From a virus: 64,000 nucleotides of DNA. Location: positions 1 to 64,000 of the IMG/VR virus record IMGVR_UViG_3300033141_004852. One strand, given 5' to 3'. Within the stretch, counting starts at the first letter, position 1. Every line of letters begins with the position of its first letter. The notes below the pieces were generated by a model. It was not told the DNA's origin, did not search any database, and saw only the letters and a list, made by a program, of their open reading frames with translations. The translations under genes and the position numbers were made by a program. This document shows positions 1 to 64,000 of this stretch, piece after piece.

Positions 1-55
1 TATATCCAGGAGGGGGTTCTCATATCAGTGTCAGGAGGTATCGGTAGCGGGGGAC

Positions 56-6989: not shown

Positions 6990-8363
6990 CTACTCCTCCA
7001 ACAAGTACAACAGGTTCTCAAATTGTACCCAGAGAGCGTAGTTGCCCGCGGCGATGACATCTCCCTTCGTGTACTGTTCGTCCTTTTCCCCGCCAGCGAA
7101 GTTCAACGTCGCTGCACCGCTGTGATCGTACTTCCCCCACAACTCCACGACGATGCGGTCTCCCTCCTGGATATGGATGTCGTCTGCGAGCGCGGCCCCG
7201 TTCGCCTCCGCCCAGATGTACTCTGTGCCCGCGGAGTCCTGCGGGCTACCTTCGAGAAGCGTTGTGCTGTCATAATTCGCGGAGGAGAGAGTCGCTACCC
7301 GTCCCACACCCGGGCGCCAGATGTAAACGAAGGCACAGAGAGTCAAGCCCTGTGTCGCCAGCGCATCCTCGCAGCCACCCACGTCGCAGGTAGTACCACG
7401 GGGGAGAATCTGCTCCGCTAGAGGATAGCTAACGTAGGACCCCCAGGGGTCGTAGTGTGTGGAGCCGTCGCCGGTAACGCTCTGGCTGGGGATATACTGC
7501 CCGGGGAGTGTGCTCGTCAGACCCCCCAGCACCGGCGTAGTCTGCCCATAGGCAGTCTGCCCCGCCTCCGGCGAGGATGGGTCGATGTCAGCCGCGGTGA
7601 TACCAGTCGGCGCCGTTCCCCCCAGGTGAAGCCGGTAAGCGCGCGTGACCGTCGGAAACGCCACCTCCTGAATCGTCAACCGAGCGGGGAAGCGCGGGTG
7701 CTCCCCCCAGGGGAAGGGTTCCATCGGGAACTCCATCAGGCGACCGTAGATGAGATGCTCGTACTCCGCGTACACCTCCCCCAGCTCCGGTAGTGTGGAG
7801 GGGAAGTACACACGCCCCTCACTGGCGTCAACCGTCACATTGAAGGTATCCGTAGTCCCCGTCCGCCCACCATACTGGTAGATGACGGTGCCGTTGCGGT
7901 CATAGAGGACCAGCGATTGCTCCACGAAGGGCCACACAGCCGTGTAATAATAGCCGTTGCCGTCCGTCCACAACGGGTCGCGATCCCTCCTCCGCATTGA
8001 GCCCCCATAAGGCTCCGCCGAAGCGGGGGGGATGTAGATGCCGATGTTCTTCCCCTGGTCTTGGTAGAGACGCAGGCGTCGGACGAACTCCGCATCGAGT
8101 ACTTCGGGGAACTCAATGTCCCAGAGAATCCTCTGTATACGCCGCGCCGACCACGCGGTGGCCATGTAGAGATGACGTGCGGGGGTGATAAGTTTCCCGA
8201 ATCCACTTTGCATCTGTACGTACTCGGAGGTAGACTGCGCCGTCCCCGAAATCTGGCTTGGGTTGACAGGCAGGAGATAGCGGTCGCGGGTCAGCGAGGC
8301 GAAATCCGCGAAGCACGTGGGTGCAATTCTCCCCGGGTAGCGATTGGAACCCTTAGCCAACAT
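6990..8363 (-). CDS. Distal tail (Dit-like) protein with extra domains
   Basis: ATG 8363 with GGGAGG RBS directly after the tape measure gene; call is positional. Confidence 0.55.
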   Translation of the reverse strand: MLAKGSNRYPGRIAPTCFADFASLTRDRYLLPVNPSQISGTAQSTSEYVQMQSGFGKLITPARHLYMATAWSARRIQRILWDIEFPEVLDAEFVRRLRLYQDQGKNIGIYIPPASAEPYGGSMRRRDRDPLWTDGNGYYYTAVWPFVEQSLVLYDRNGTVIYQYGGRTGTTDTFNVTVDASEGRVYFPSTLPELGEVYAEYEHLIYGRLMEFPMEPFPWGEHPRFPARLTIQEVAFPTVTRAYRLHLGGTAPTGITAADIDPSSPEAGQTAYGQTTPVLGGLTSTLPGQYIPSQSVTGDGSTHYDPWGSYVSYPLAEQILPRGTTCDVGGCEDALATQGLTLCAFVYIWRPGVGRVATLSSANYDSTTLLEGSPQDSAGTEYIWAEANGAALADDIHIQEGDRIVVELWGKYDHSGAATLNFAGGEKDEQYTKGDVIAAGNYALWVQFENLLYLLEE

Positions 8364-28026: not shown

Positions 28027-29829
28027 TTACGCCTCAGGAGTGAGTGAGGGGAGAATGTTTGTCCCCCGAGGAAGCATCCCCGCATACCCTACCTGCCCCC
28101 CACGAATCGGAGGAATATCCAACAACTCCGCGTAGTGAATCATGGCCGCGAAGACTTTGAATGTGGAGACAATATGTGGGTGTGGAGGCTCGAAACGCTT
28201 CCCACCTGTCAGAGTCTCGCGATAGCTCGTCACCTCCGCGAATAGAGCCCGGTCTTGTCCCTGACTAGGAAGCAGAAGCCGGGGGTTATCCTCCGTCATC
28301 AGCATCTGCAACACCCGCACAGTGAAGATGTCCGTGTTCTCCATCTCCGGCTCCGGGCCGACGAACATGCTCGGCATGGTCCCCGCGAAATCTACGGGAA
28401 TGACTACCTGCCCCTCCCAACCCTTTGTGCGAGCGATTTCCTCCGCGATCTCATCCCCCTTCGTCAACCCACGCAATTGCAACCGCCGCCGGCCATGAAA
28501 CGCGAAGAGATCCTTATTCATCAACCAATCCGCTACATAAACCGACTGACTGGTACTATCCGCCCCAATCCACTCCGCCTCCCAGAATCCCGCTACCCGA
28601 TCTACTAACACCGTCAACAACGTCGTGTCCATCAACTCCACGAAGTCCAAACGTTGGAGGAGATACCATTCCGCAGTATGATGGGGGTGTTTCTTCGCGA
28701 GCTTACCCCACACCGTCACCGCGCAGAAAGCAGGACCAGGGTCAACAGCGACGAATACTCGCTCTACCGGATACGCTAACGTCGGGCGTGACGATTGCTG
28801 CATCAACAACTGAAGCAACAAATCCTCCGCGGGGATACCCGTCTGCGCCACCACTTGCGGGTTGAGTTCCACAACTGAGTAATCTGAAATCTCAGGCTCT
28901 ACCGTACACGCTTCATACACTCGCAGGGGGAAACATGCTGCCACCGGGTCCCCCCATTGCCCGAGAGTGTTCCGCTTCCCATCATTGGAATACTGAGTGA
29001 CGACAATCCGCCCCGACTTCGTGCGGTAATATGTACACCCGTTTTCTTCCAACACGCCCAAGAACGATTCCTGGGTTACCTTCGCGGAGAGGAAGGACGG
29101 AATACGACGCTTCCATCGATACCAACGCCCTGCTTTGTTGTGGCACATTTCCGCGTATTTCGTCGTCCGATTACCATCGGGGACCCCGTAGTATTGCCAA
29201 CACGCATCCCGATCCTTGGGATCGAAGGGGATAATCAGATCGACGAGGAACGTCCACCCCTTATCGGGGATGTCCTGCACCTCGTCCCCCCGAGCCCTCC
29301 GAGGATGCTCCCCCTTGTACCCAATACCGCCCCGCCCGGGGATCAACGCCCGCAACCCCCAGCCGTTCTTCGCCTTGATCTCCCGCTTAGATTGTCGAAC
29401 CCCGGGCTTGCGCGGGTCCTCCTGCATCCACCACTTGAAGAAGGGGTGATCCAGGAGAAGAGCCACGACCTCATTGTATACCCGCATAGCGTGCTGATCC
29501 GTCGGGCCGAGAACCCCCGTCTCCTGGTTAGGGTAGTTGATCATATCGAAGGCGGTCGCCCCCTGCAACCCCACAGTCGTCTTCCCAATCGCACGCCCCG
29601 CTTCGCAGAGGACCATCGGCCACAAGAGGAAGTAATACTGGTAGTACCAGACATCACGGGCGTGCTCGTCATCGTTCCAGATATAGTCCGCCAACGGTGC
29701 CGTCGACGCCGGGTCGGGGAGGAGGAACATCTGGAAAAGTACCGGATCCGTGAGGATCTCCCACAATGCTAGATCCTCATAATCAGGGGTTCGCTCTACC
29801 TGCCCAACTGCATCGCTAATCACCGTCAT
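28027..29829 (-). CDS. Terminase large subunit
   Basis: Walker A GRAIGKTT, DEVQD Walker B, YYGVP coupling motif, nuclease VAVDPG and GADST. Confidence 0.88.
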   Translation of the reverse strand: MTVISDAVGQVERTPDYEDLALWEILTDPVLFQMFLLPDPASTAPLADYIWNDDEHARDVWYYQYYFLLWPMVLCEAGRAIGKTTVGLQGATAFDMINYPNQETGVLGPTDQHAMRVYNEVVALLLDHPFFKWWMQEDPRKPGVRQSKREIKAKNGWGLRALIPGRGGIGYKGEHPRRARGDEVQDIPDKGWTFLVDLIIPFDPKDRDACWQYYGVPDGNRTTKYAEMCHNKAGRWYRWKRRIPSFLSAKVTQESFLGVLEENGCTYYRTKSGRIVVTQYSNDGKRNTLGQWGDPVAACFPLRVYEACTVEPEISDYSVVELNPQVVAQTGIPAEDLLLQLLMQQSSRPTLAYPVERVFVAVDPGPAFCAVTVWGKLAKKHPHHTAEWYLLQRLDFVELMDTTLLTVLVDRVAGFWEAEWIGADSTSQSVYVADWLMNKDLFAFHGRRRLQLRGLTKGDEIAEEIARTKGWEGQVVIPVDFAGTMPSMFVGPEPEMENTDIFTVRVLQMLMTEDNPRLLLPSQGQDRALFAEVTSYRETLTGGKRFEPPHPHIVSTFKVFAAMIHYAELLDIPPIRGGQVGYAGMLPRGTNILPSLTPEA

Positions 29830-30727
29830 CACCAAACACTTGTGCCGCGCCACCCTCCACTCCCGCGGGCGCATCATCCTCCGGCACCGGCGACAGCCCA
29901 TCTGCCTGCCGCCACGCCTGCCACATTTGATCCACCCCGGGCACGGATGTCTTGAGGATACGGGCCGCATCCTCCAAAGTCAACTTCGGGCGCCCACACT
30001 CGCACTTCTCCTCCAACATCTCCCGCACAGCCGTGCTCCAAATCGGGAAAGTCGGGTGGTTGAGGAAAGCATGAGACCACGGCGTGTGGACGATCTTCCA
30101 CTCGGCGGGGATACCATTCCCCTTCAAGGCGGCTATCACCGTCTCCGCCAACACGGTGTCGATCCCACGCCGCTCTAGAATCTGCTGAAACTGCGTCCAG
30201 TCCGGTCGGTACTCCACGCTCATCAAAGCGTAAACCATCTGAATATGCCCACACGCTCGGCATGCATACGCCCGCTCCAAGCCGTGCTTTTCCATGAAGC
30301 GCCCCACCCGCTTCCGCAACGCTTCCACATAGCGCATCGGATCCTCGCGGTCCGCGGAGGATCCAACGATGCCCATCTTCACGTACATATCCAGGAGATC
30401 CCGGCGGAGTCGGCGCGCCTCAGAGCGGAATCCCGAACTCACCTTCAAGTTCGGTACGGGCTTCGCATCCTCCATGCGCGCCTTCGCATCCAGGCGCAGT
30501 ACATCCAACTGCATCTGCAACAACATCCGCAACAAATGAGCGTTTGATACCTGCTGGAAGCTCTGGTAGCCCTCAAGAAGATTACGGAGAGCACTCGCCA
30601 TCTCCGCCCGAAACTCCGCAGGGCAGTCAAGACTCGAACCATCGGGGAGACGCAGATCATCCTCCGAGACTATGGGAGCCGTCGGATCAACCTTCCCCGT
30701 GAGAGTGGCTTTGGAACTCCGCCGCAT
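29816..30727 (-). CDS. Putative terminase small subunit or packaging-associated protein
   Basis: Immediately upstream of and overlapping the large terminase; helical, with CxxC and a C-terminal HTH-like segment. Confidence 0.5.
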   Translation of the reverse strand: MRRSSKATLTGKVDPTAPIVSEDDLRLPDGSSLDCPAEFRAEMASALRNLLEGYQSFQQVSNAHLLRMLLQMQLDVLRLDAKARMEDAKPVPNLKVSSGFRSEARRLRRDLLDMYVKMGIVGSSADREDPMRYVEALRKRVGRFMEKHGLERAYACRACGHIQMVYALMSVEYRPDWTQFQQILERRGIDTVLAETVIAALKGNGIPAEWKIVHTPWSHAFLNHPTFPIWSTAVREMLEEKCECGRPKLTLEDAARILKTSVPGVDQMWQAWRQADGLSPVPEDDAPAGVEGGAAQVFGDDGD

Positions 30728-51634: not shown

Positions 51635-51663
51635 TTGACAGTTACGGCGATATATGGTATATA
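51635..51663 (+). promoter_or_regulatory. Early promoter P1
   Basis: TTGACA-N17(ending TGG)-TATATA then CAGGAGGTAG RBS. Confidence 0.75.
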
Positions 51664-51694: not shown

Positions 51695-52708
51695 ATGACT
51701 ACTAGCAAAGCGCAGGCAATCGTGAACTACTACCGCGAACACCCTCGGCATGGTATCCGGGTATGGTTAGAGGAGGCAGATGTAGACGGACTCTACGCCG
51801 CGATCATTGTCGAATCCGATGCGCGTGATTGGCGCCGGTCTATTCGGCGACTAGCACGGCGCCACCACCTGCGGGTTGAATCCTGGTATCAACCCCTACA
51901 CCAGGGGACGCTAGTCTAAACCGGGATAGGTGTCCCGGAATCACTCTATGGAGGTAGAGGAAGATGGTAGCAAGACACACCTATCATGTGGCGGTATCAA
52001 TCCGCTATGCCCGCCAGGTGCTGGACAGCATGGAGCAGGAAGGACGCGAGGTGATTCCCCCGTGTGAGAATGTGGACCGGGCAGGCAGATGCCGCGGCCA
52101 CCAAGTAAAGGAGGGAGAATAATGGTGGGCGACAACACAATCCACCTGCATACAATCAGATGCTACTGCGATCCCGGCCGCGTGTGGATTGTCGCCACAC
52201 GCGGCACACAATCGCGAATTATAAACCCCTGGCCTGCTACACCGCAGGAGGCGGCCAGGCAGATACAACGCCTACGGGAGAAACTGGAGGCGGAGGGAAC
52301 ATGCATACAATCCAGGTGATATTACGGGATTGTACCACGCAAGAGGACCATGTAGCCCTGCCGGAGGCAGGTAGCCGCGATCTGCGGGAGATGCTGGAGA
52401 GCAAGGGGGACTATGTGCTACAGCGCCTGGCCGCGGCGTTGTCGCCCGTTGTAGCGGCAGAGGAGGCGGAGGCGCGGGCGCGCGCCGCGCGCACCCTCAC
52501 TCCTGCCGAACAGGGGATACTACAACGGGCCATACGCGCCGAAGGTTGGACAGTAGAGGCGATCACGCATGAAGGGCGCGTGATGCTGAAGATCAAGAAC
52601 CCTCCCGAATCCGCCACCTGGCGGGCCGATGCCTATAGGGTGGCCAGGGCATTCGGGCTTCGCGTCCTGGAGTTTCTCCCGGAAAGGAGCGCGATCCTGT
52701 CCCGTTGA
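51695..52708 (+). other. Four small early genes (51695-51919, 51964-52122 not in track, 52122-52319, 52301-52708)
   Basis: Each ATG has GGAGG; TAATG coupling at 52120. Confidence 0.65.
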
Positions 52709-52715
52709 TATGCCG

Positions 52716-52942
52716 GGCGCGCGGGTGTCCCCGCGCGCTCTTCCCTCTCTGCCTCCGGGAGGGGACAGAGAGGGAAGAGGTAGCACCTTGACAACGGAAT
52801 ACGCGCCTCTACTCTACCTCCGGGAGGGGAGGGACTAGGATCACCAATCCCCTCCTCTCCTGCTAGGGAATTAGCGATCCTAGTCCCCTAGCAGGAGGGC
52901 GCGACGCGCCCTCCCGAATCTAATCTACGGAGGTAGAGGCAG
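52716..52942 (+). promoter_or_regulatory. Structured leader A with anti-SD pairing
   Basis: Several 9-14 bp stems; CTCTACCTCCG 52812 complements CGGAGGTAGAG 52928; TTGACA-N16-TACTCT. Confidence 0.55.
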
Positions 52943-53503
52943 ATGGTAGCAGGACAGCAACAGATAGTGGGTATGGACGTCCCGGCCCGGAACCTGCTGG
53001 ACTTGGACGCGGACGCCGTGCGCGAGGAACTGAATCGCGCGCAGATGGTGCTGGAGGACGGAAACATTATCCAATCCGTGTACCTCGGCCAATGTTGGGT
53101 GTTGTGTCCCGACGAGGCCGAACTGCGCGAACTGTTCCCTGCCAACGCCGACGCGACACGCGGTGAACTCGAAGATTATTGGTGGCAGGAGGCGGAGGCG
53201 TGGATCACGGAGAACATGCCAGGAGTGTTCCTGCAGCAGGAGGCGGGAGAAACATACCTCCAGCAGGTGGCCCAGGAACTCCACGAATGCTTGCAGGTAG
53301 ACGAATGCCAAGGAACCCTCTCCTATGGCGGCCGCGTGGTATACCGTCTACCAGATGCCGCGCGGGAACACGTGGAGTGTGTGTTTGATGCCCTCCTGCG
53401 CGCCGCGACCAGGTGGTGTAGACGCAAAGGGTTTTGGCCATGGGTTGTGTCCGTAAATCCCTCCGGCGAAGTGTTCACGCACATCCCGCCCGTCAACGCG
53501 TAG
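52943..53503 (+). CDS. Acidic hypothetical early protein
   Basis: GGAGGTAG RBS, 186 aa. Confidence 0.7.
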   Translation: MVAGQQQIVGMDVPARNLLDLDADAVREELNRAQMVLEDGNIIQSVYLGQCWVLCPDEAELRELFPANADATRGELEDYWWQEAEAWITENMPGVFLQQEAGETYLQQVAQELHECLQVDECQGTLSYGGRVVYRLPDAAREHVECVFDALLRAATRWCRRKGFWPWVVSVNPSGEVFTHIPPVNA

Positions 53504-53509
53504 AGGATC

Positions 53510-53811
53510 GGGCCGGCAACCTTGCCGGCCCCTCCCGGAAGGTGATCGCCACCAATCACCTTCCGGGAGGGATAGAGTAGAGGTGTAGATTCACACATTC
53601 GCAGGTGATCCGCTGATCCTGCGAAGTGTCTAAATTGTCCTGCCCGCGCGCCTTGCCGCGAAGCAAGCAAGTGCTAGGTTGGTATGATCGCAGAAGCAGG
53701 CAAGCACCTGGCCCCCTGGACACCTGCGGCAGGAGGCCGGGGGAGGTCGCGGGCAGGGGAGGTAACAGGGAGGTAACAGCACCTCGCGTAACACAACAGG
53801 AGGCCAGGTAA
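53510..53811 (+). ncRNA. Candidate structured RNA or leader B
   Basis: 10-bp and 17-bp perfect stems in tandem, further stems, and long-range CCTGCCCGCG/CGCGGGCAGG pairing; no ORF with RBS. Confidence 0.4.
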
Positions 53812-54906
53812 ATGGACTACGTAGATGGTGGTAACGGGAATATCATTGTAACGCACGCAGGGAAACCTGTAGCGGTGATCCTCTCCGAGGGTGAACACCT
53901 CTGTGAAAACTGCTACAGGCGGCCCGCGGAACATACCCTCTATATTCCCGATGAACCCGACGGCGAGAACAGGCCATTCTCCACAGGAAACACCAAAAGG
54001 GGGTGTAACACAATTCCCTGTTGACAATTCGGGGGAATTGTGGTATAGGTAGAATACCAACAGGAGGTAGGACACTATGGCGAGGTTATACGCAAGGCTG
54101 AATGCCGACGCAAGCAAGCACGAGGTAACCCGCCGCGGCCACCGCCGAATCACCGCCCGCCTAGAGACGTGGGGTGGGGCGGTGGAGGTAACGCTATGCG
54201 CAAACGGTTCCTTCACTGTCACGAAGGGGCCGAAACATAACCCGCAGGAGGTGATCGCCGTCGGAAGCCTCCCCCTGGAGTAACACCCCCGGCCACCCTC
54301 CCCTCTCCCGGTCGCGCTGATCTACACGGCAGGGAGAGGGGATGGGAGAACACATAATAGGAGGCAGGACAGATGCCGCCGTCACCGTATGAACCCGCCC
54401 CGGTAACTATCGGGGAGAAGTGGGCGCACGGACGCCCCTGCCCGGCAACAGATAGGTTTTCGCGGGCGCTCCTGTATCTGCGACAATTAGACAAAGATGC
54501 CGCGGACCGCGTAGAACACCACGCCGCGGCGTATGTAACAGTGCTCCACCAAAACCCCGACGACGTACAGGCCGATGAGAGAGTGTGGGAATACCTGCAA
54601 GAGGTATATACGCTGATAGAAGAGCACGCAGAGGCCTATACGTACTTCGGCGCGTGTCGCGAGGGAGGCCCCGGTGTCGGGTGTTGGCCGGATTGGGATA
54701 GAGTACAGGACGCCCTCGCGAATGGTGATCTGCTAACCGCAGATACGGTCCTTGCAGAGGATTCTCACACTATCAATAGCCCGCGTGATCTGCGCGAAGG
54801 CGCGCTGATATTCGCGGGCGACGCCGCGCAAAACACGGGAACCCTCTGGCAGGTGGTGGAGGTCGCGGGCGACCGCGTAACCCTGCGGAGGTGTTGGGAA
54901 GAGTAA
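53812..54906 (+). other. Three small early genes (53812-54024, 54077-54283, 54373-54906)
   Basis: AGGAGG RBS before each; the last carries a YFGA.EG..G.G.W motif. Confidence 0.65.
54021..54049 (+). promoter_or_regulatory. Early promoter P2
   Basis: TTGACA-ATTCGGGGGAATTGTGG-TATAGG; overlaps the stop codon of 53812-54024. Confidence 0.7.
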
Positions 54907-54981
54907 CAGGAACCTCCCTCCTGCGACTAGTGATCTGGCCGCAGGAGGGAGGGGACAAACACAGAAGGGAGGTAGGTAACA

Positions 54982-55325
54982 ATGGTAACAGCGTATGAAA
55001 AGGCCGTAGAACGGGGCGGTGAAGGTCTCGAAGGCTACACCCCGGTATCGGGGCGAACTGCCCGACGTGTTGCCGCAGGTGGGGCGTGGACGCTGAGGAC
55101 GCCGCCGCGGTCGCCAGGTTCAGCGACCGTATCAGTGGGGGGGAGGTAGAAGAGGATGGTGGGTTTTCCTGGGCCGCCTGTGATCTGTGCGGAAGCACGT
55201 TGGGCGGGGATAGATTCGCGGCCCACGGATTCACCCCGGAAGGCAAACTGATCCACCTGGATATATGCATGGACTGTTTGCAGTACCTCGCCAACGGAAC
55301 AATCCCGGAAGAGTGGGAGGGATAA
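54982..55325 (+). pseudogene. Zinc-finger gene split by a 1-nt frameshift near 55035
   Basis: RBS and ATG at 54982; the -1 frame LHPGIGANCPTCC..CDLCG..ICMDC aligns with intact paralog 58129. Confidence 0.6.
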
Positions 55326-55329
55326 CACT

Positions 55330-56086
55330 ATGGACAGGTTTGAGAAGTACGCCCCTTATCACCCTTGGGGGGACGTTGCGCGGTATGCCGCGCGGTTGTA
55401 CCCCAATGCCCACGAGATGCAAGCGTGGACACAAGCCACCGCGGCCGCCTGCGGCCGCGCGTACTTGGAGAATCGTGCGCTCCTGCGGCTTTATGCGCGT
55501 GATTTGGCGAAGAAGGCCGTCACCCTTCTCCGAGGCGAGGTGACTGTAACGGAGGTGATCCCCGACTACCTCCGGGACGCGCCGAATGCCCCGCGGACTA
55601 TCCCGGAAGCACTGGCGATCCTCGCCCAAGAGTCTATTTGGGCAGCAGCAGGACTATAGACAATCAAGAAGAAGGAGGTAGGACACTATGCGCGTAACAA
55701 TTGAGTGGGGCCACCCCGACGCGGGGCAGAACTACGTGGAGCGGATTCGCTTGTGTCCCGCGTATCGGGACTACGTGAAGGACCCGCGGGAGGTGGTGCT
55801 GGAGGCCGACGGCGGCGACCTCGGCATGATTCGCAACGGCGGGCGCGGGTGGGTTTGCGTCCTCTATCCCGACGGTAACTGCCCACACACAGAACCCCGT
55901 AACGGAGAATGTGCGGCATGTAAACTGACCTGCGCAGTCCCCGTGTTCGCCCTGGACGGGACACCCGTAGACGGGGAGGCCGCGGAGGTATGTACCCCCC
56001 AGGAGGCCGCCGCACAAGCGGAGGCGGCAATCCGCGAGGTAGTAGACGAATGGATTATTGACCTCGTGGAGGCCGCAGAGGAATAA
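55330..56086 (+). other. Two early genes (55330-55659, 55688-56086)
   Basis: GGAGG RBS; the second is Cys-containing and acidic. Confidence 0.65.
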
Positions 56087-56091
56087 CCCTG

Positions 56092-56122
56092 TTGACAATT
56101 CGGGAGAATCATGGTATATACT
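56092..56122 (+). promoter_or_regulatory. Early promoter P3
   Basis: TTGACA-ATTCGGGAGAATCATGG-TATATA(CT). Confidence 0.75.
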
Positions 56123-56142
56123 ACCGGGAGGTAGGAAAAACA

Positions 56143-58112
56143 ATGGCGAAACGCGTAACTGCCGGAAAGTGGTATCGCTACACCGCCGCGCACTTGATGG
56201 ATCGGGTGATTCACCCGCCCGACAACCTGCAACCGGGCGACCTCGTGCAGGTCAAGAACCTGACCGGGTGTCCCCCCTGTAACACAATGGGCATGGCGCA
56301 CGTGGTACACCCCGACGGCACCCTTGGAGGACTGGTATACACGGCAAGCCTAGAACCTGCCCGCGCCCCCCAGAAGGAGAATGCCGCATGACTACTACCC
56401 ACCAGGTAACAGGTTGGACTTCTGAGGAATGGCAACAAGCAAGCGTGATCGGTTACGGGGATTACCGCAACAGTATTCCCGGAATCACGTATGCCTTGAC
56501 CGCGAATGGGGATGTACTGGTAGCCCGAAACGCAGGTGCTGATCTGCGCCTCCGCTACAACGTTCCCCCGGCTACCCCGGACTTCGGCCCCGCGGAGAGG
56601 GCGGCACTCGCTCGCCGTCGCCTGCGCGCCGACGGCTGGCCCCTGCGAGGGAGGTAACAATGAGAATGAGAACACCTCCCCACCAAGTGACAACGGAACC
56701 CGTGGACTGCACCTGCGCGAAGTGCGGTGGCCCCGCGGTTATCTACCCCGTCCCGCGACCGCGGGGAACCTGTATCTGCAAACGGTGTTCCCCACCGTGG
56801 GCCGCCGACTTCGTAAACTTTCTCCTGCAACAGGAGCAAGAAGGGGGCAAGTAACATGCGAATGATCTTCGCCCTCCAATACGCCGAGGGCTACCCGACG
56901 GCATACCACGTTCCCGCGGAACGGTGGCAGGAGGCGTCCCGCCATACTCGCTACCCCGACGCGCTGATAGCGCAGAGGAAGCACAACCTGCGAACCGGGG
57001 GTAAATGTGTCTACCGCGTAGTGCCCCTCCGGGATACCTTCGCGACGTTTACCTTCCTCTGCCAGGGGGCGCGGGCAACGGACTATCGCTGCCCACACAA
57101 CGCTCACGAGCGTGTAACAGTCCCCTGGCCCGCGGGGACACCGTACCCCCTACGTCCAACCCTACCAAGGTGGGCCGCCAGCAACCTCTGCATGGCATGC
57201 GCCAACGCGGCAGAGGTCGCCGACACACACAAGAAAGGTGAGGAAGAACATGCTCTTGACCGCAGAACTTTGGTATGAATCTCACCGCGGGAGTGGGCGC
57301 GTGATCTGCCGATCTGCCGCAGAATTGAAGCGCGCCCTAGCACGAACCCGCCCGGACTATGCTAGCCTCACCGTCGCCCGGAGGGGTGCACCTGCCACCT
57401 CGTGGGATTCTGCCCACAATGCAAGGCAGAACTACACGCTGATCTGCGGGGGGGTGTATGATCTACCGCCCGCCAATTATGACGGGGATTTTTGATCTAC
57501 TACAGGAGGTAGGACCCTATGCTAGAGGAAGAGTGCAAGATTCGCACCACGTTTGAACTGTGCCGCCGGGGTGTAACAGTCACAGATGCCCTGCGCTTGT
57601 TCCGCACGGCACGGAGGCTACGCCGCCTCTGCCTGCACTATGCCGAACGCCCACTCACGCCCGGCGAACTCAGAAGACTAGTGGAGGCGAAGGCCGTCCT
57701 AGAAGCAGCGGACGGCGTGAGCACGCAGCGCGACCCGCGCTACACCGTCGCCTATCTAACGGTGGAGGGCGCAACGGGAGAGGAAGTCAAACTCCCCCTA
57801 GACTGCTGATCTGTGAGGAAGGCTACCATGCCCACAGCGAATGATAGCGACGTAGCACTCACCCCGACGGTGCAAGTGGGGCCGGGGGGAATCACTTGGC
57901 GGGAGGCGTTAGCACAAGCACCGCCCGGAGGGCATTATCGGGCGATTCCCTATCCACAGGTTCCGGGCCTGCTTGTACAAGTAATCGTGGGGGCACGCGT
58001 GGTATTCTCCGGGATGGTAGTATGCCGCCGCTCCCGATCTGATCTGGCGCGGTGGACGCGTGAGGTGAGGAAACTCCACGGATGGATTGTTCTGCCAAGT
58101 CAAACACCGTAA
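56143..58112 (+). other. Seven small early genes (56143-56391, 56388-56657, 56660-56854, 56856-57278, 57250-57495, 57519-57809, 57828-58112)
   Basis: Packed ORFs with purine-rich RBS; 56660 is a CxCxxC..CxCxxC zinc finger. Confidence 0.6.
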
Positions 58113-58128
58113 CAGGAGGTAGGAGAGA

Positions 58129-58821
58129 ATGACACTAGGACTATACCAATACCTGCGCGACCTTGCCCCGAAAACCCGAACCTACGCGGGTAACGGGAAC
58201 AACAAGGTCGTACCGGGAGCGGCACCAAACTGTCCGACCTGCCTGCGCCTCTACGGACTGACCAGCCCACAAGCCTTCGCTGATCTGCTAGAGGTAGAGG
58301 GTGAGCCGGACCCCTTCACAGGTGGGGACCCCTGCGATCTCTGCGGGGCACCGCCGGGCCTGCGTGTAACAGCGCACGCTGAGGACCGCGAAACAGGAAG
58401 GCTAGTACACCTCGTGATCTGTGCCGACTGTGCCGCCTACTTCGCTAACGGCACCCCTCCGACCGACGTTGACCTCACGTTTGAGCGGTGTTGGACAGCG
58501 CCCATAAACCCCGATGCCTGGGGCGTATGGTGGGAGGGCAAACGCTTTCCCGACGGGCGCGGAATCCTCTTCGTGGAGGTCGCCCGTAGTCCAGCACCAC
58601 CCGACCCGGCACTCGTGCAGGACGTGCTGAATAACGCGGGTGGCGATCCCGTGGAGAAAGTCCGGCATGGCGACGCCTGGATTCTGAAAACTTGGCATGA
58701 CTCCCCGGAGCGAAAAGCGCTAATCGCTGCCCGCGTGATCCGACGCTGGCGACAAGGGTGGCGCCGCGGAGTGAATAGCATGTATAAGCACCACCCCGAA
58801 TTAGCGACAATCACTACTTGA
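58129..58821 (+). CDS. Zinc-finger early protein
   Basis: CPTC, CDLC and CADC; CAGGAGGTAGG RBS. Confidence 0.7.
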   Translation: MTLGLYQYLRDLAPKTRTYAGNGNNKVVPGAAPNCPTCLRLYGLTSPQAFADLLEVEGEPDPFTGGDPCDLCGAPPGLRVTAHAEDRETGRLVHLVICADCAAYFANGTPPTDVDLTFERCWTAPINPDAWGVWWEGKRFPDGRGILFVEVARSPAPPDPALVQDVLNNAGGDPVEKVRHGDAWILKTWHDSPERKALIAARVIRRWRQGWRRGVNSMYKHHPELATITT

Positions 58822-58846
58822 CAATTCGGGCGAAACATGGTATGCT
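58818..58846 (+). promoter_or_regulatory. Early promoter P4
   Basis: TTGACA-ATTCGGGCGAAACATGG-TATGCT. Confidence 0.8.
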
Positions 58847-58868
58847 GAGTAACAGGAGGTAGGAAAAC

Positions 58869-59351
58869 ATGTACTTGATCTTACAAGAGGAAAACGTCGG
58901 CGGGTGCGTTGTCCGTTTCGGCACAGATTGTCACGGAATGTATGAACTCACTATGCACCTGTCCAACGAATCCCCGCCTAACGCACCTTCGTTAGCGAAC
59001 TTGATAGAGAGGTGGGGCCTGTGTCCCCTCACTTCTGACACCCCCGAAGAAAACGCGACACGAATCCCCGTAGCCCCACGAGTCAGCGCGCAGGAGGTAC
59101 TGTCCCGAATCCCGGAGGCACAAACACTCGCGGACCGGATGCCGGGGGGTAGTAGTATTATACTGTTGCTCGGCAAACAGCGATATGACGTAGTCCCCAC
59201 CGTCCAATTCGCTCTCCCAAACTGGGCCGACCGCTATGCCGCGGTGGAGGTAGCATTCTGTGATGACTCCACCCGCGAATACGACCCCGAACTACGTCTA
59301 GGGCTACTCCAAACGCGCTGCGCAGAGTGCGGCCTAGTCCTTGACGACTGA
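58869..59351 (+). CDS. Hypothetical early protein
   Basis: First gene after P4. Confidence 0.65.
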   Translation: MYLILQEENVGGCVVRFGTDCHGMYELTMHLSNESPPNAPSLANLIERWGLCPLTSDTPEENATRIPVAPRVSAQEVLSRIPEAQTLADRMPGGSSIILLLGKQRYDVVPTVQFALPNWADRYAAVEVAFCDDSTREYDPELRLGLLQTRCAECGLVLDD

Positions 59352-59385
59352 TCCAAAACACCATTAGGAGGCAGGAGGCGTAACA

Positions 59386-60015
59386 ATGCAAGAAGTGTCA
59401 GAGGTATTGGAGTTTGCGGACGGTGCAACGCTAAGAATCATGCCGGACCCCAACCCTCCGAATCCCCGCGAATCGGATAACTTGGGGAAGATGATATGCT
59501 GGCATTCACGGTACAACCTCGGCGACCGCCACGACTTCGCGACCCCGCAGGACTTTCACGAGTGGGAGGCAAGCCCGGCCGGAGAGGGTGCGGAGGTTCT
59601 ACCCCTCTACCTGCTAGACCACAGCGGTATCACCATGAGCACCAAACCCTTCTCCTGCCGGTGGGATAGCGGCTGCGTCGGATTCATCTCCGTAACAAAG
59701 ACCCGGATTCTCCAAGAGTACGGAGAAGATACCAAAGAGGTACGCGCTCGCGTCCGCGAGGTACTACGGAACGAGGTGGCCACTTATGACAAGTGGCTCC
59801 GGGGGGACACTTGGGGGTACGCCCTATTCGGGCCTCCGGTCACCTGCGACAAGTGCGGACACACGGAGACCCCGCTCCTGGACTCTTGCTATGGGTTCTT
59901 CGGATCGGACCACGAAGCGTCCGGCATGTTCGACAACCTCCCCGATCCCTACGGCAAGTGGGCAAAAGAAGGTAACTACACTGAGAAAGAGGACCGGACC
60001 CCATGCAGAGTATAA
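59386..60015 (+). CDS. Conserved mobile-element hypothetical protein
   Basis: NPRE.DNLG.M.C.H.RY.LGD, LPLYL.DHSGIT, WDSG.VGFI and DSC.GF.G motifs; I recognise the pattern from phage/ICE proteins of unknown function. Confidence 0.75.
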   Translation: MQEVSEVLEFADGATLRIMPDPNPPNPRESDNLGKMICWHSRYNLGDRHDFATPQDFHEWEASPAGEGAEVLPLYLLDHSGITMSTKPFSCRWDSGCVGFISVTKTRILQEYGEDTKEVRARVREVLRNEVATYDKWLRGDTWGYALFGPPVTCDKCGHTETPLLDSCYGFFGSDHEASGMFDNLPDPYGKWAKEGNYTEKEDRTPCRV

Positions 60016-60164
60016 CCGCCATGATCTGCCGATTCGTGGACGTTGTCACAGACTGCATGGACGCGGCGACGCCCTACGTACCCTACGCTGGAGCGGCGAT
60101 CCTCACGTACATAGCCTGGCGTATGTACGTTGGGATAGAGCACACTCTCGGACCCATACCCTAG
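60003..60164 (+). CDS. Small membrane peptide, 53 aa, not in the ORF track
   Basis: MQSITAM..VPYAGAAILTYIAWRMYVG; GAGGA upstream. Confidence 0.4.
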   Translation: MQSITAMICRFVDVVTDCMDAATPYVPYAGAAILTYIAWRMYVGIEHTLGPIP

Positions 60165-60259
60165 CCGATCCCCCGCCCACCCCTGGGGGAATCGGTAGCG
60201 AAGGGAGGCGGAGACAATGTAATACTGATCCCCGATAATCGCGTGCTAATAGGTTGAAC

Positions 60260-60493
60260 GGGGAGGGTTCCCCCGGTCGGGGGGACTCTCCCCCAAGGAA
60301 GCGGGAGCACCGTATCCTTGGGGGAGGGGCTAGAGAAACCTTGACAACCTGGCAGGGTGAGTAACTTGTCCCCACGGGGGCACGGGAGGCATTCCTACCT
60401 CCGGGGACACCCTCGCGGTGCGGGGGTGTCCCTCCCTCCCGTGACGGTCCACGGGGATCGCCACGGGAGGGCAAACTACTAGGAGGTAGTATC
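60260..60493 (+). promoter_or_regulatory. Structured leader E with anti-SD pairing
   Basis: Two tandem hairpin pairs flanking ACCTTGACAAC; CTACCTCC 60395 complements GGAGGTAG 60482. Confidence 0.55.
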
Positions 60494-60879
60494 ATGTACC
60501 GAGTGACGTTGGAGTCCGAAGAATATGGGGTAGAGGAGTTTCGCTACCCCACGCTAAGGGATGCGCGGGAAGCAGTAGCCCGCCTCAGTGAGGAATGTGT
60601 AAATGCTCACAAGCGGGACGGGGTAGAACGTAGGATTGTCCTGCATATCCCCGCACGAAGTGCCGACCCCGCCGCCGCCAAAGAGGAGGCGGAATCATGC
60701 TGAAGTGCCTTCGCCGCCACCTTCTGTATCTGGAGTGGTGGTGCTACAAGACTGCCGCCGACGCCTTCGTGGCGCTGGCGCGGAGCGCGGGGGACGCGCT
60801 CCTGCAAATCCACGGATACCCGGCTGAGGAAGACGCTATCCACCGGGCCGCGACTCCCCCACACGCCCGCCCGAAGTAA
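60494..60879 (+). other. Two small early genes (60494-60703, 60697-60879)
   Basis: AGGAGG RBS before each. Confidence 0.6.
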
Positions 60880-60880
60880 C

Positions 60881-60909
60881 TTGACACCGCGGGCGAAACA
60901 TGGTAACAT
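60881..60909 (+). promoter_or_regulatory. Early promoter P5
   Basis: TTGACA-CCGCGGGCGAAACATGG-TAACAT. Confidence 0.75.
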
Positions 60910-60940
60910 GCGCGAGGTAACAAACAGGAGGTAGCACAGA

Positions 60941-63278
60941 ATGTATACCGCCGAAGACTTGAGTATCATCGCCGTTGGCTTCCGCCCCGAAGACCGGGAC
61001 TTCACGGTTGACGACTCCCGGTACTGGGTATGCACCACCATGCTCACGACCGAGCAAGAGCACCGCTACGGACTTCCCCTGTACCCACAGACCCCCACTT
61101 GGTGGCCGCTCGACTACGGTAGCGCCACCCCCACACCAGAGGAGAGGGCGGCAAAGCACTTGGGGGACGTGATCCTCAACAACCTCTCCACAGTCCTGCT
61201 TGTCCATGATCGGGAACAAGACGCGTACGGTATCTGCTACCGCGAAGAGAGGACGGCTCCAGAAGAGGTGATCGCCGCCTATCTGATCTGCGGACTCCTG
61301 CCACCAGTCTCCCTCGTGGAGCACTTCAGTACCCGCCTCGACCCCCGCGGGAACCTCCCGACCTCCACTTATCAAGCGGTACTGGAGGCGTGTCACCTCA
61401 CCACGCGGGAGGCACGGCGAGGCGATACCGCGCAGAAGGTCGCCAACCTCTGGACCGGGTGGGTTCCGCCCTCGGAGATTGGCGGGGCTATAGAGCGGTG
61501 GACAGAAACACTCCCCGTCGGCCCGCTCCAGGAACGGTTGGGGTTCTGGATTGATCTGAAAGACAGTCCCGACACAGACGAAGAGACGGGGGAGCCGCTC
61601 CTACGACTGGCCGTCTGCACCGAAGCCGGGAACGTCCTCACCAGCACGGGGACGGGCGTCCCCGCCACCGCGACACCGGAAGAGCGCGCACAGGCGCTCG
61701 CCAACGCCGCCGCAGCCGTCCACCGCGCCTTCGAGAAGGCTGCCGAGAAGATTGTCGCCCGCCTCTCCGGGAACGACTTCCGAGAGGGAGTGCCCGATGC
61801 CTAGACCGCACCAGGGAGCACGGTATACTTGGCCGAAGAAAGATGAGGAGTACCGCCTCTACCGACTACACCTGCGCGAAGACGGCGAATCCTGGACTGA
61901 GTACATGCTCGTGTTGCAAGGGGATGATCACAAGGATACCAGAGGCCGCCCGGATGCCCTGGTTTGTGGTGTCCGCGGTGACCCCAACAGCCTCTACTTC
62001 GGCTCCGTAGACGTACAACACATACTAGGTTCATGCTCGCACAAGCGGGTAACATGGGATGAACTTCCCCCCGAATGGCAGGACGCCTATCTACGCTGGG
62101 GGGTAGACGCTTCAGCACGGGGCCTCCACCTCACCACGGAGCCGGATACTCCCGTCCACAAGGTCGCTGATCTGCTTTGGAGAATCCGACGCCTGGCGGT
62201 GGACTGCGACCCCGCGGAAGAAGACCCACTGGCGGTGATCAATAACTTAGCGAAGGAAGCCCTCGCTACGCTACAGTCTGTCTCTACCTCCTAGCGACCC
62301 CCCGGTCGCGCCCGGTCTCTGGGCCGGGCCGTGCTCACCCCCACAGCGGGTACGGCCGGGCCTGGAGAAACCCAGGTAACACATACAGGAGGTAGCGAAG
62401 ATGACGTGTAGTATCTGCGAACGTACAGCGCCACTCACTCCATGCAAACTCTGCGACAGGATGATCTGCCACCAATGCTCCGTTCGCGTTGGGGAGCACA
62501 CCTACTGCGGACCCTGCCTTGTGCGGGAGCAACCGCCGTTCAATCCCCAGCGCGGACACGTCCCCCAAGTGGACCAGCGAGTAGTGGTAACGGACCCACC
62601 CGCTGATCTTCGACACCGCGCCCAGCAGGTCGGCGCCGTCCAGGCGATCACGTGGGAGTGGGAACCGGACGAGAATCTCGAAAACAAAGGGTACTGGGAT
62701 GCCATAACGGGGGTAGTTTTCCGCGATGGTAAGGTCGAAACAATCCCCTGCCGCTCCCTCACCCCGATCCACCAAGCACTTCGGGTAGTCCGCCGACTCG
62801 TCTGCCCGAAGGAGGCAACACACTTGCCGGATACGTACAATGACGACGTGTATATCGTCAATCCGCCGATCGGGGCAGGCAAGGACGGCGACTTGATCTA
62901 CCACGAGGTTGGCGTCTTACTGCAGGCAGACGGGACCTGCACGAATCGCTGGGCGGACGGCACCGTCGGCGTCCCCTCCAAACTGGCGGAATTGGTGGAG
63001 GAACTCGCCGCCGATATTGACGGCGCAAACTGCGCCCACTGCGGGGAGATCGCCGAATGGCGCGACGTGGATGTGCCACTATGAAACAGGGAGCCTGCAC
63101 GATCTGCCACTCTTTCCCCGTTCCTACCCGCACCTGCCCCGGCTGCGGCAGGATAGTGGGGCAGGAATGCTTCGCCGACGCGGAGCGATGCCGACTCTGT
63201 GACGAATGCTCAGAGCACCAAGAGGAGGTAACAAACAATGGCGAAACCCGCCCTGGACTGCACCGTAACCTACGCTGA
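60941..63278 (+). other. Four early genes (60941-61804, 61797-62294, 62401-63084, 63081-63278)
   Basis: RBS or coupling; the last two have multi-CxxC zinc fingers. Confidence 0.65.
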
Positions 63279-64000
63279 TCTGAACAACGGCGCCGCCGTA
63301 TCGCGCGTGATCGGTCGCGGTCGCTACGCCCTGCCGATCTGTGAAAATGTGGCGATCCGAACAGAAGGGCAGAAAATCCGGTGTTGGGCGTACCCCGCCG
63401 GACCCGCTGCTGCTTGGGACTTCAACGCGCGGGTAGCAGTCAGTGGGGGAATCACCGTCCCCGCCCGGACCCTCAAACGCGTGCTCAAAGCACTGAAAAC
63501 GAAGGCGCGGGAACCCCTGCGGCTCCAAGCACCGGACCCCTCTCACTTGACTATCACCGCGGGTAACACCCAAGTCAGCCTCCAGGGGCTCCCGATAGAA
63601 GAATACCCGCCCCTCCCCCACATCAAAGACCCCTCCACCTACCAAGTCACGGTGGGGATTCTCCGTGAGGCATCCACCCGCCTACTCCCCCTCGCCAAAG
63701 CGGCGGTGGAGGAGAAGTGGCAGGGGATTCACGTCATCCCCACCGACACAGACGCCGTGGGCTTCTGGGCCACAGACAGATTCCGAGTAACGCACATACC
63801 ACTCACCCCCACCGCGCAGACGGGGATGCAGCATATTCTAATCCCTACCGAGGCCCTAGAACACTTCCTCGCCCTCAGCCGCCGACTCGACGGCGAGGAA
63901 CCCGCATACATCCACGCAGGACAGAGTGCAGAGAGAGACGATCCCGCACCGCGGGTAACACTCACCTGTGGCCCCCTAACTGTTACTGCAGGCTCCTTCA
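63238..64000 (+). CDS. dnaN: Divergent DNA polymerase III beta clamp-like protein (partial, runs off the window, not in track)
   Basis: My translation gives LPICENVAI, GITVPARTL, LQGLPIEEYPPLP, ATDRFRV and ILIPTEAL, matching the DnaN pattern; GAGGAGGT RBS. Confidence 0.75.
   Translation, partial: MAKPALDCTVTYADLNNGAAVSRVIGRGRYALPICENVAIRTEGQKIRCWAYPAGPAAAWDFNARVAVSGGITVPARTLKRVLKALKTKAREPLRLQAPDPSHLTITAGNTQVSLQGLPIEEYPPLPHIKDPSTYQVTVGILREASTRLLPLAKAAVEEKWQGIHVIPTDTDAVGFWATDRFRVTHIPLTPTAQTGMQHILIPTEALEHFLALSRRLDGEEPAYIHAGQSAERDDPAPRVTLTCGPLTVTAGSF

Follow-up and report, generated by a model that had tools for sequence, protein, structure and literature searches.

The short words (G)GTAAC(A) and TGATCTG are concentrated on the coding strand of a 14-kb early block in an uncultured tailed phage

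Results

Genes, promoters and junctions

The genome analysed here is a 92,603-bp viral record from a very isolated, uncultured 92.6-kb tailed phage, and the window is its first part, a stretch of 64 kb. The contig is a circular assembly opened in a terminator hairpin, and its ends are not taken as physical DNA ends. We found no relatives of the phage in any collection searched, no cultured relatives among them, and searches bearing on the host found no tRNAs and no close cellular homologues.

The genes and promoters of the early block lie on the plus strand. Five small same-strand genes (51695..53503), which gave no informative family matches, form an operon that serves as an unlabelled control: it has the same promoter and ribosome-binding-site (RBS) style as the genes that follow, and contains neither word. 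A hairpin-rich intergenic region of 308 nt (53504..53811), in which inverted repeats can be read, parts this operon from the labelled block. The proteins of the block are nearly all orphans, and none of them matched an RNA-binding or nuclease family. No repressor or helix-turn-helix (HTH) family was matched above the cut-off in the block and the upstream operon, where an orphan protein could hide one, and no RegB homologue was detected among the proteins encoded at 51.7-92.6 kb.

A sigma-70-type promoter with an extended -10 element (TTGACA, 17 nt, TG-n-TATAGG) lies at 54021..54049, and similar promoters are found at 51635-51663, 56092-56120, 58818-58846 and 60881-60909. Only the last of these holds GTAACA within its -10 box (TAACAT). 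Gene junctions are also built from recurring parts. The cassette GTAACAGGAGGTAGGA (58109..58124) consists of the upstream gene's TAA stop, CA, and then a Shine-Dalgarno (SD) sequence; this 16-mer is repeated identically at 58849-58864, with variants at 53788, 60917 and 62376. At 54280..54372, a stop-codon GTAACA precedes a hairpin of the CCTCCC/GGGAGG type, whose loop contains TGATCT, and an SD sequence and ATG come next; this layout recurs at 54903-54981. Eight of the block's ten TAA stops read G-TAA-C. A promoter or PeSL-type cassette is nonetheless ruled out as the source of the GTAACA copies, since 1 of 35 lies in a -10 box, about 5 share the junction cassette, and there is no flanking consensus.

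Two words enriched on one strand

The original prediction, made from the window, described GTAACA as strongly enriched on one strand of the early arm, and it is confirmed in stronger form, with every position that it listed recovered. Between 53762 and 64000 there are 28 copies on the plus strand and one on the minus strand (at 63981). The rest of the window holds 5 copies in 54 kb, and its first 50 kb has 1 on the plus strand and 4 on the minus strand. The window as a whole contains 34 copies, against 14.7 +/- 3.6 in 100 dinucleotide-preserving shuffles, the largest of which gave 24. In the full record, the cluster continues 3.6 kb beyond the window to span 53762-67607 (~14 kb), with 35 copies on the plus strand, where a first-order Markov model expects 2.2, and 1 on the minus strand. 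The polar enrichment in the early arm thus stands, while the motif and its domain are revised: the core is the pentamer GTAAC with G favoured before it and A after it, the domain runs to 67,607, and a second word, TGATCT(G), accompanies the first.

Within the block, GTAAC occurs 58 times on the plus strand and 4 times on the minus strand. The plus strand is enriched 5-fold for GTAAC, and 15-fold or more over Markov expectation for GTAACA. The minus strand is at expectation for both (4 vs 6.8 and 1 vs 1.2), as are the sense strands of other gene blocks for GTAACA (structural arm, 4 vs 4.6; later plus-strand arm, 3 vs 2.8). In a sliding 14-kb control that took in all hexamers and heptamers, this domain gave p 3e-20 for GTAACA, 2e-17 for GGTAAC and 1e-12 for TGATCTG, while the best word of other 14-kb domains reached only p 1e-4 to 1e-7. 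The (G)GTAAC(A) domain (window part, 53762..64000) is therefore unique among all 14-kb domains.

The second word, with the consensus gcTGATCTGc, has a domain at 54318..63281 that holds 24 of its 26 copies in the arm, the other two being at 66,058 and 66,119. TGATCTG occurs 18 times in the block against 0.6 expected, an enrichment of about 30-fold on the plus strand. TGATCT(G) is split 26 to 2 between the strands, and GATCTG 23 to 0. Most copies of TGATCT(G) are intragenic and are shared equally by two frames, and the density of TGATCTG is uniform at 1.7-2.7 per kb. A preference of this word for initiation regions was looked for and none was seen. Taken together, (G)GTAAC(A) and TGATCTG are 15-30 times commoner than chance in the 14-kb early block, which is made up of small genes, and nearly all copies lie on the coding strand.

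These strand counts bear on the idea that the bias arose as an escape from host defences that act only on an asymmetric site present as inverted pairs (type III, type ISP, MANTIS or BREX-like systems). The words do resemble typical asymmetric 5-7-bp defence sites. Evasion, however, requires depletion of one strand, whereas here the minus strand is at expectation and the plus strand is enriched, 5-fold for GTAAC to about 30-fold for TGATCTG, and the effect is limited to 14 kb out of the 92.6 kb of genome. Defence-site avoidance is contradicted by the counts, and we consider this explanation extremely improbable.

The left edge of the domain is abrupt. The first labelled gene starts at 53812, and its 5' leader holds three GTAACA copies within 32 nt (53762..53793, spacings 11 and 15); the same-strand genes directly upstream have 0 GTAAC in 2.1 kb. 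At least one word is found in 27 of the 28 genes of the block, but in none of the 5 genes upstream and in neither of the 2 downstream. The right edge, at 67,607, falls within a helicase gene, and no convincing terminator was found near it. The domain stops about 2.1 kb from an origin-like element at 69.7-70.1 kb that comprises an AT-rich dip, four direct iterons and one inverted copy. The words are spaced slightly more evenly than expected at random, and the largest gap is 691 nt.

Placement and selection at synonymous sites

It had been proposed that the copies within genes fall in more than one frame, that others coincide with TAA stops, RBS spacers and non-coding DNA, and that codon use alone seems insufficient to explain them. 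These points are borne out. Plus-strand GTAAC is found 26 times in frame 0, 13 times in frame 1, 8 times as TAA stops and 11 times in intergenic DNA. Inside genes, the (G)GTAAC(A) word was observed 18 times against 4.3 +/- 1.9 in synonymous-codon shuffles, which never reached the observed count, and TGATCTG 15 times against 3.4. The counts therefore exceed both the Markov and the codon-shuffled expectations, the statistics by which the original prediction proposed that it be checked. GTA is the Val codon before Thr in 63% of cases in the block and 25% elsewhere, and codon coupling across boundaries spells GTAAC in two frames (OR 5.2, p 2e-6; OR 5.4, p 5e-5); both effects are seen in this block only. 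Val-Thr dipeptides are also doubled in the block. Codon usage is thus no explanation for the enrichment, and the words are kept by selection at the nucleotide level, silent codon positions included.

The distribution has two components. Both words form a baseline of about 2-3 per kb that is uniform over coding and non-coding DNA, on which GTAACA superimposes an extra peak of 13 per kb directly upstream of start codons. A tally from codon positions places 10 of the 39 GTAAC copies found in genes within the first 20 codons (~13% of coding length). In the 30 nt that precede start codons, the density of GTAACA is 5-7 times that of the remaining non-coding DNA or of coding DNA, and its placement is therefore not a matter of freedom from coding constraint. 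The peak follows from ribosome-site grammar, in which a TAA stop is followed by CA and an SD sequence, or an SD GGAGGT by an AACA spacer. The interpretation of GTAACA as an overlaid polar code at the nucleotide level accordingly survives for the baseline, while the start-adjacent copies are more simply read as RBS grammar.

Could such grammar account for everything? On this explanation there is no dedicated reader, and the words are a by-product of RBS and stop grammar, shuffling of junction cassettes, and the local codon and dipeptide preferences of a mosaic module whose history differs. Junction grammar does account for about 40% of GTAACA copies (G-TAA-C stops, GGAGGT + AACA, the 16-mer cassette), promoters and junctions are repeated cassettes, and the block uses GTA for Val unusually often. 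Yet in-gene copies are about 4 times the synonymous-shuffle expectation, codon coupling acts in two frames, and TGATCTG behaves alike while being unrelated to junction grammar. The upstream operon has the same grammar and 0 copies. One-mismatch neighbours of GTAACA are not enriched, GTAACN excepted, which argues that the copies are not decaying cassette remnants. We regard a purely incidental origin as quite unlikely. Coding tandem repeats of the collagen-like Gly-X-Y type are ruled out by the two frames and non-coding copies, the irregular spacing and the spread over 28 genes; the dense polar GTAACA that such repeats produce in four other loci (L063, L097, L099 and L161) keeps to one frame, multiples of 9 nt and one gene.

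Context of the words

Outside the 5-7 nt of the words, information content is near zero, with no wider consensus or dyad around them and no partner element within +/-45 nt. Two of the readers first suggested for GTAACA do not fit this context. Decoys for an OmpR-type regulator would be expected as paired direct repeats at 10-11 bp; only 53762/53773 are so spaced, and no partner is found in +/-45 nt. Antitermination RNA sites would be expected as a few leader copies in a structured context, and neither is seen. GUAACA is predicted to be unpaired at 0.64, compared with 0.63 for composition-matched hexamers, which indicates no single-strand preference beyond composition.

The context also bears on a stoperator-like polar roadblock or silencer, in which a duplex DNA-binding protein would stop transcription according to orientation, in lysogeny or late infection. 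In L5-type phages, stoperators are asymmetric and their orientation follows transcription and is required for function (PMC9283540). Orientation likewise follows transcription here (58 plus vs 4 minus), within a single block that has one transcription direction only, and the words are spread over many genes, often at junctions where they overlap stops and RBSs. The labelled block includes a tyrosine recombinase gene, so a temperate lifestyle is possible. However, stoperators are 13-mers read by a two-domain monomer, and 5-7 nt is too little information for a specific duplex-binding repressor; no asymmetric site of about 13 bp is present, most copies are intragenic rather than intergenic, and the block and upstream operon gave no repressor-like or HTH family match. 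Such a silencer seems unlikely to us.

Discussion

The main rival to the reading that we favour is a Chi-like signal, in which a host helicase-nuclease of the RecBCD/AddAB type would recognise the words or their complements (TGTTACC / CAGATCA), and a dense one-way array would halt the degradation of ends arising beside the origin or at packaging cuts. Like Chi, the words are short, polar, devoid of a wider consensus, present in several frames and selected at synonymous sites. The even baseline density of both words, their spacing that is slightly more even than random, and the proximity of the domain's end to the origin-like element would also suit such a role, and some lambdoid phages carry extremely many Chi sites between origin and cos, while T5-like and P1-like phages over-represent Chi (PMC3784561). 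The geometry of the array carries no weight, because either strand could be recognised and any geometry would then fit. Against a Chi-like role, two unrelated words need explaining, the start-codon peak of GTAACA is not expected, and there is no enrichment beyond the origin or in the structural arm. A Chi- or KOPS-like function of the kind first suggested is possible but, on this evidence, doubtful, and the accompanying premise that this DNA is injected first gains no support from a contig opened within a circular assembly.

We tentatively favour a reading in which the words are a transcription-coupled, one-strand address label of early operons, most likely read during or after transcription, although we hold it with well under even confidence. 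Host RNA polymerase would start at the sigma-70-type promoters at 51.6-60.9 kb, and messages crossing 53.76-67.6 kb would carry (G)GUAAC(A) at intervals of about 240 nt and UGAUCUG at intervals of about 400-500 nt. A sequence-specific factor of phage or host origin would recognise the word in single-stranded form, either on nascent RNA or on the non-template strand of the DNA. It could then handle the messages of the block collectively; cutting, silencing or stopping them when early expression gives way to middle expression are examples. We infer that reading takes place on RNA or the transcription complex, and the same holds for the reader's identity and the consequences of reading.

Several observations are consistent with an address label. 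The words occupy the sense strand (58 vs 4; 26 vs 2), and their domain begins right behind the hairpin-rich intergenic region, within the first labelled operon's 5' leader, spans the early promoters and extends about 7 kb past the last one. Coverage of 27 of the 28 genes, the crowding of GTAACA before starts and of GTAAC in the first 20 codons, and the selection at synonymous sites with its codon coupling and doubled Val-Thr dipeptides point the same way. A single-strand reader also fits the short words, which have neither dyad nor partner, better than a helix-turn-helix operator would. A precedent for recognition of short words in early messages is T4 RegB, an enzyme that cleaves at GGAG where this lies single-stranded between genes, and does so in early messages and not in late ones (PMC1702504). 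Transcription runs in the same direction throughout the block and so coincides with DNA polarity, and reading at the RNA level is not separated from reading at the DNA level. The control operon at 51.7-53.5 kb, with its shared promoter and RBS style, indicates that the label is not simply that of an early host-polymerase transcript. The missing right-edge terminator, the ordinary pairing of GUAACA, the indifference of TGATCTG to initiation regions and the lack of an RNA-binding or nuclease family match among the block's largely orphan proteins speak against a transcript label.

More broadly, it is plausible, if somewhat short of an even chance, that the block carries an undescribed viral cis-code, in which two one-strand words, kept by selection in genes and spacers of this block only, would let a phage or host protein tell early nucleic acid apart from the remainder of the chromosome. 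If a dedicated factor reads the words, then a whole block of unrelated early genes could be handled as one class without long operators, with timing, shut-off and nuclease protection as possible uses. This would add a layer of phage regulation or DNA self-marking beyond promoters and terminators, and the words could serve to recognise the early regions of uncultured phage genomes from sequence alone. Should they instead be a host's Chi-like sequence, they would help to predict the host and would represent a new Chi specificity. Whichever holds, the block is a clear case of a phage word of 5-7 nt that is selected for at synonymous sites.

Each of the known systems closest to this block shares some of its features. 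Terminase small-subunit arrays at cos (Serratia BZS1 / Citrobacter phiNP-like, loci L060 and L062) consist of protein-read GGTAACA direct repeats, but there the 5-8 copies are packed into roughly 250 bp at cosL/terS with a spacing of about 12 bp, whereas the copies described here are spread over 14 kb and the terminase gene is about 24 kb away. Type III and MANTIS systems (T7 and EcoP15I; preprint 10.64898/2026.09.23.753747) also involve asymmetric 5-7-bp words on one strand; there one orientation is depleted, and here one is enriched 5-30-fold with the other at expectation. The stoperators of Cluster A mycobacteriophages (L5 gp71 / TipsytheTRex repressor; PMC9283540) are similarly asymmetric, transcription-oriented and often at junctions, but are 13-mers distributed genome-wide and read by a two-domain repressor, in contrast to words of 5-7 nt in one block that are mostly intragenic. 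T4 RegB targets (GGAG with an A-rich 11-nt context; PMC1702504) are likewise a short word marking early messages near the RBS. For RegB, the word is identical with the Shine-Dalgarno sequence and copies count only if they lie between genes, while the words here are not SD sequences, are mostly intragenic, lack the GGAG plus A-rich, single-stranded intergenic form, and are under synonymous-site selection. Chi clusters (Bobay, Touchon and Rocha 2013, PMC3784561) resemble the block in having a short polar word that runs through genes and is over-represented in a domain by the origin. Chi is one host-specific word with a known reader, RecBCD, at about 0.2 per kb, whereas this block has two words at about 6 per kb, one of which has an extra peak at starts.

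Two one-strand words are concentrated in the early-gene region

The hexamer GTAACA occurs 28 times on the plus strand and once on the minus strand at 53762-64000, and the first 50 kb hold five copies on both strands together. These direct counts, and every coordinate checked, agree with the original prediction, which had proposed an overlaid polar code in this arm. Across the whole genome, the cluster extends over 53762-67607, with 35 plus-strand copies against 2.2 expected under a first-order Markov model; three further copies lie outside it, at 73.8-74.5 kb. The pentamer GTAAC forms the core of the word (58 copies on the plus strand, 4 on the minus), with G favored on its 5' side and A on its 3' side. 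GTAACN is enriched and the other one-mismatch neighbors are not, and thus the word is sharply defined. Markov models of orders 3-4 do not flag it, which we judge uninformative rather than negative because GTAA and TAAC are almost confined to the word itself. A second word, TGATCTG, is found 18 times against 0.6 expected, at 54.3-63.3 kb plus two copies at 66.1 kb, and its shorter form GATCTG has 23 copies on the plus strand and none on the minus strand. In the structural arm and among the later plus-strand genes, both words are at expectation on the sense strand.

Concentration was controlled by sliding 14-kb domains along the genome and scoring all hexamers and heptamers. The block yields p-values of 3e-20 for GTAACA, 2e-17 for GGTAAC and 1e-12 for TGATCTG, and no word passes p ~1e-7 in any other 14-kb domain. 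Window 28000-49000 shows a mild concentration of CCACAC, CCCCACA and CACCCA-type words on the plus strand (p ~1e-6 to 1e-7), antisense to the minus-strand genes; the early-block words are concentrated far more strongly. At least one word is present in 27 of the 28 domain genes, in none of the five same-strand genes directly upstream (51.7-53.5 kb), despite a promoter and RBS style that they share with the block, and in neither of the next two genes downstream. Copies are spaced slightly more evenly than at random (CV 0.8-0.9), with a largest gap of 691 nt. A literature search found no reports of GTAACA in phage early genes.

Models with a distal partner, a promoter box or a fixed spacing were tried and returned nothing within +/-45 nt. 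No information is present beyond the GTAAC core and its adjacent flanks out to that distance, and the two words keep no constant mutual spacing. The OmpR-type decoy of the original prediction finds no support. A stoperator-like roadblock would fit the orientation of the words (PMC9283540) but not their size of 5-7 nt, and we consider it unlikely. Evasion of defenses that need inverted site pairs predicts depletion, whereas enrichment is seen, and we give this explanation almost no credence.

Codon usage does not account for the enrichment, and gene starts account for part of it

Our gene model is heuristic, built on Shine-Dalgarno (SD) strength and GC3 periodicity. Under this model GTAAC falls 26 times in frame 0 (GTA-ACN), 13 times in frame 1 (NGT-AAC), 11 times in intergenic DNA and eight times at TAA stop codons, occupying eight of the block's ten TAA stops, while TGATCT uses two frames in about equal shares. 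In 1000 synonymous-codon shuffles across the 28 block genes, none reached the observed word counts (GTAACA, 18 in genes against 4.3 +/- 1.9; TGATCTG, 15 against 3.4 +/- 1.4). Codon usage is not the explanation of the enrichment, and the comparison with shuffled codons that the original prediction had proposed thus gives a GTAACA count away from the codon-shuffled expectation.

Selection is also visible codon by codon. GTA makes up 26/41 of Val codons before Thr and 69/275 elsewhere (OR 5.2, p 2e-6), codons ending in GT account for 13/28 of those before AAC against 128/922 (OR 5.4, p 5e-5), and ACA supplies 12/26 of Thr codons after GTA against 55/275 (OR 3.4, p 0.005). Val-Thr dipeptides are themselves doubled, at 41 against 21.5 expected. 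The structural and late gene blocks show neither of the Val-GTA and NGT-AAC couplings and no excess of Val-Thr; for them the Thr-ACA coupling is not clean, with an OR of 8.3 (p 0.03) in the late block that comes from only five Thr-after-GTA codons.

The copies form two layers. The first is a near-uniform label of both words throughout the domain: GTAACA and TGATCT each have a density of 1.7 per kb in coding DNA and 2.7 per kb in non-coding DNA more than 30 nt from a start, and the expectation for GTAACA is ~0.16 per kb. The second is a peak of GTAACA at start codons, reaching 13.1 per kb in the 30 nt before them, against 2.4 for TGATCT. This peak arises from the very regular initiation regions of the block, roughly (t)aACA-GGAGGTAGG-a.aca-ATG, in which either a TAA stop and CA lead directly into the Shine-Dalgarno sequence, or an AACA spacer comes after GGAGGT. 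It is more than freedom from coding constraint, since non-coding DNA elsewhere holds no more of the word than coding DNA does, and the initiation-region grammar accounts for ~40% of GTAACA copies. That the words are purely a by-product of this junction grammar and of module history is contradicted by the selection within genes and across codons, and by the second word, and we regard it as distinctly improbable. Internal starts were also considered; ATG and SD-like sequences near the copies exceed background only to a modest degree, and true start sites account for them.

Two intergenic regions, at window 54284-54372 and 54907-54981, have a common layout in which a stop-codon GTAACA is followed by a hairpin, an SD sequence and an ATG. 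Their hairpins are long and of CCTCCC/GGGAGG type, carry TGATCT in the loop and can mask SD-like sequence.

Overall, these results establish that the two words are a selected, polar and domain-limited nucleotide code, and the overlaid polar code of the original prediction is supported.

The label belongs to an isolated siphovirus-type phage

The window covers the first 64 kb of a viral record of 92,603 bp, and the two ends of this record share a 114-bp overlap. At the junction (genome 92,470-92,603 joined to window 1-40), the overlap starts in the loop of a perfectly paired hairpin (GAGAACCCCCTCCT ... AGGAGGGGGTTCTC) that sits between two convergent gene arms, and the record is therefore a circular assembly; the hairpin is probably a terminator acting in both directions and the point where the assembly was broken, not a physical end. 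The phage is siphovirus-type. Its structural arm (~1-50 kb, minus strand) includes the tape measure (8353-13377, minus) and the large terminase, TerL (window 28027-29970, minus). The plus-strand arm starts at 51.7 kb and continues to the genome end; it opens with ~30 small orphan genes, followed by a sliding clamp, a tyrosine recombinase, a dTMP-kinase-like protein, an SF2 helicase and DnaB. It also encodes an N6/N4 methylase, a PolA-UDG fusion, a primase, SbcCD-like proteins and glycosyltransferases. The family A polymerase (L003:12082-14727 in the genome part beyond the window, genome 75,082-77,727) has an N-terminal uracil-DNA-glycosylase-superfamily domain, a fusion also present in its distant relatives. 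A DnaG-type CHC2 zinc ribbon (Pfam E 1e-9) occurs in a stand-alone protein of 178 aa (L003:9148-9684, genome 72,148-72,684), which is encoded separately from the Toprim primase at 80,083-81,330.

By sequence comparison, the phage is very isolated. Among 50,697 phage records, megablast found no nucleotide match and tblastn no match to TerL, whose PHROG match is weak (E 5e-8), and the lineage therefore has no cultured relatives there. PolA is at most 27% identical to cultured phages and at most 30% to viral contigs; in a collection of 5.8 billion proteins its nearest relative, encoded on a 10.9-kb contig, is 38% identical, and the sliding clamp matched only itself.

Edges of the domain and a nearby origin-like element

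On its left side the domain starts abruptly: the leader of the first labeled gene packs three GTAACA into 32 nt, directly after a hairpin-rich spacer of 308 nt. Strong promoters of the sigma-70 type with an extended -10 are confined to the plus strand, at 51635, 54021, 56092, 58818 and 60881, and the last alone has the word inside its -10 box. The right edge, at 67,607, falls within the helicase gene, in its first third, and we found no convincing terminator near it. An origin-like element (L003:6741-6939, genome 69,741-69,939) lies ~2.1 kb past this edge, in an ORF situated upstream of DnaB. It contains four direct CTTGACAAAAA(T/C)G iterons, spaced 27/27/39 bp, together with one inverted copy, and GC content drops to 43-47% at 69.7-70.1 kb. 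Beyond it, at the 3' end of the methylase gene, one of the three outlying GTAACA copies (L003:10762-10806, genome 73,762-73,806) forms a 9-bp hairpin with TGTTAC 20 nt downstream, and a comparable GTAACA ... TGTTAC pair lies inside the clamp gene at window 63955-63986.

The main rival to the reading that we favor is a Chi-like signal, which we hold to be possible though rather doubtful, and which we rank above the roadblock, by-product and defense-evasion explanations. It would account for the uniform baseline of both words and for the domain's position adjoining the origin-like element, and it has a precedent in lambdoid phages, where Chi sites are piled up from the origin to cos (PMC3784561). 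Such a reading needs the host, and neither line of host inference supplied one: a tRNA search of the genome found none, and the methylase relatives are at most 37% identical and spread across many phyla.

Searches for a reader and for look-alike phages

Pfam and PHROGs searches of the block and of the unlabeled upstream operon gave nothing usable as a reader protein. The block proteins are orphans, except for one PHROG family of a promiscuous gene (59386-60015) of unknown function, which is all that the loci L208 and L209 have in common with the phage. An AlphaFold model of a 186-aa upstream-operon protein was too poor to use (mean pLDDT 51).

Three motif probes found no look-alike phages. A 16-mer junction cassette gave six low-GC chance matches. 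The triple GGTAACA retrieved collagen-like coding repeats and cos/terS arrays but no relatives; among the arrays, those of the unrelated Serratia BZS1 and Citrobacter phiNP-like phages (L060:1206-1475 and L062:1983-2240) have GGTAACA at ~12-bp spacing at cosL and the terS start, and are probably binding repeats of the terminase small subunit. The promoter cassette found a single 37-kb viral contig of 51% GC (L162:4095-4146), with 81-91% identity over only 34-53 nt to the cassettes at 54,014 and 56,069; the contig has no coding similarity to the phage, and the likeness may reflect a common host promoter type.

A possible transcription-coupled label

Because the whole block is transcribed in one direction, readings at the RNA and DNA levels are inseparable by sequence alone. 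In predicted folds, GUAACA is as unpaired as composition-matched hexamers, and the suggestion that the words are antitermination sites gains no support from this pairing. We tentatively favor a transcription-coupled label of the early operons, in which a putative reader would recognize the words on the nascent RNA or on the non-template strand. We prefer this reading since the label starts in an operon leader, extends to almost all genes that lie downstream of the early promoters, and is concentrated in initiation regions and gene 5' ends, and since its information content matches a reader of single strands, not a duplex operator. The functional analogue of the early-message label that we propose is T4 RegB, which cuts GGAG in early and not late messages (PMC1702504).
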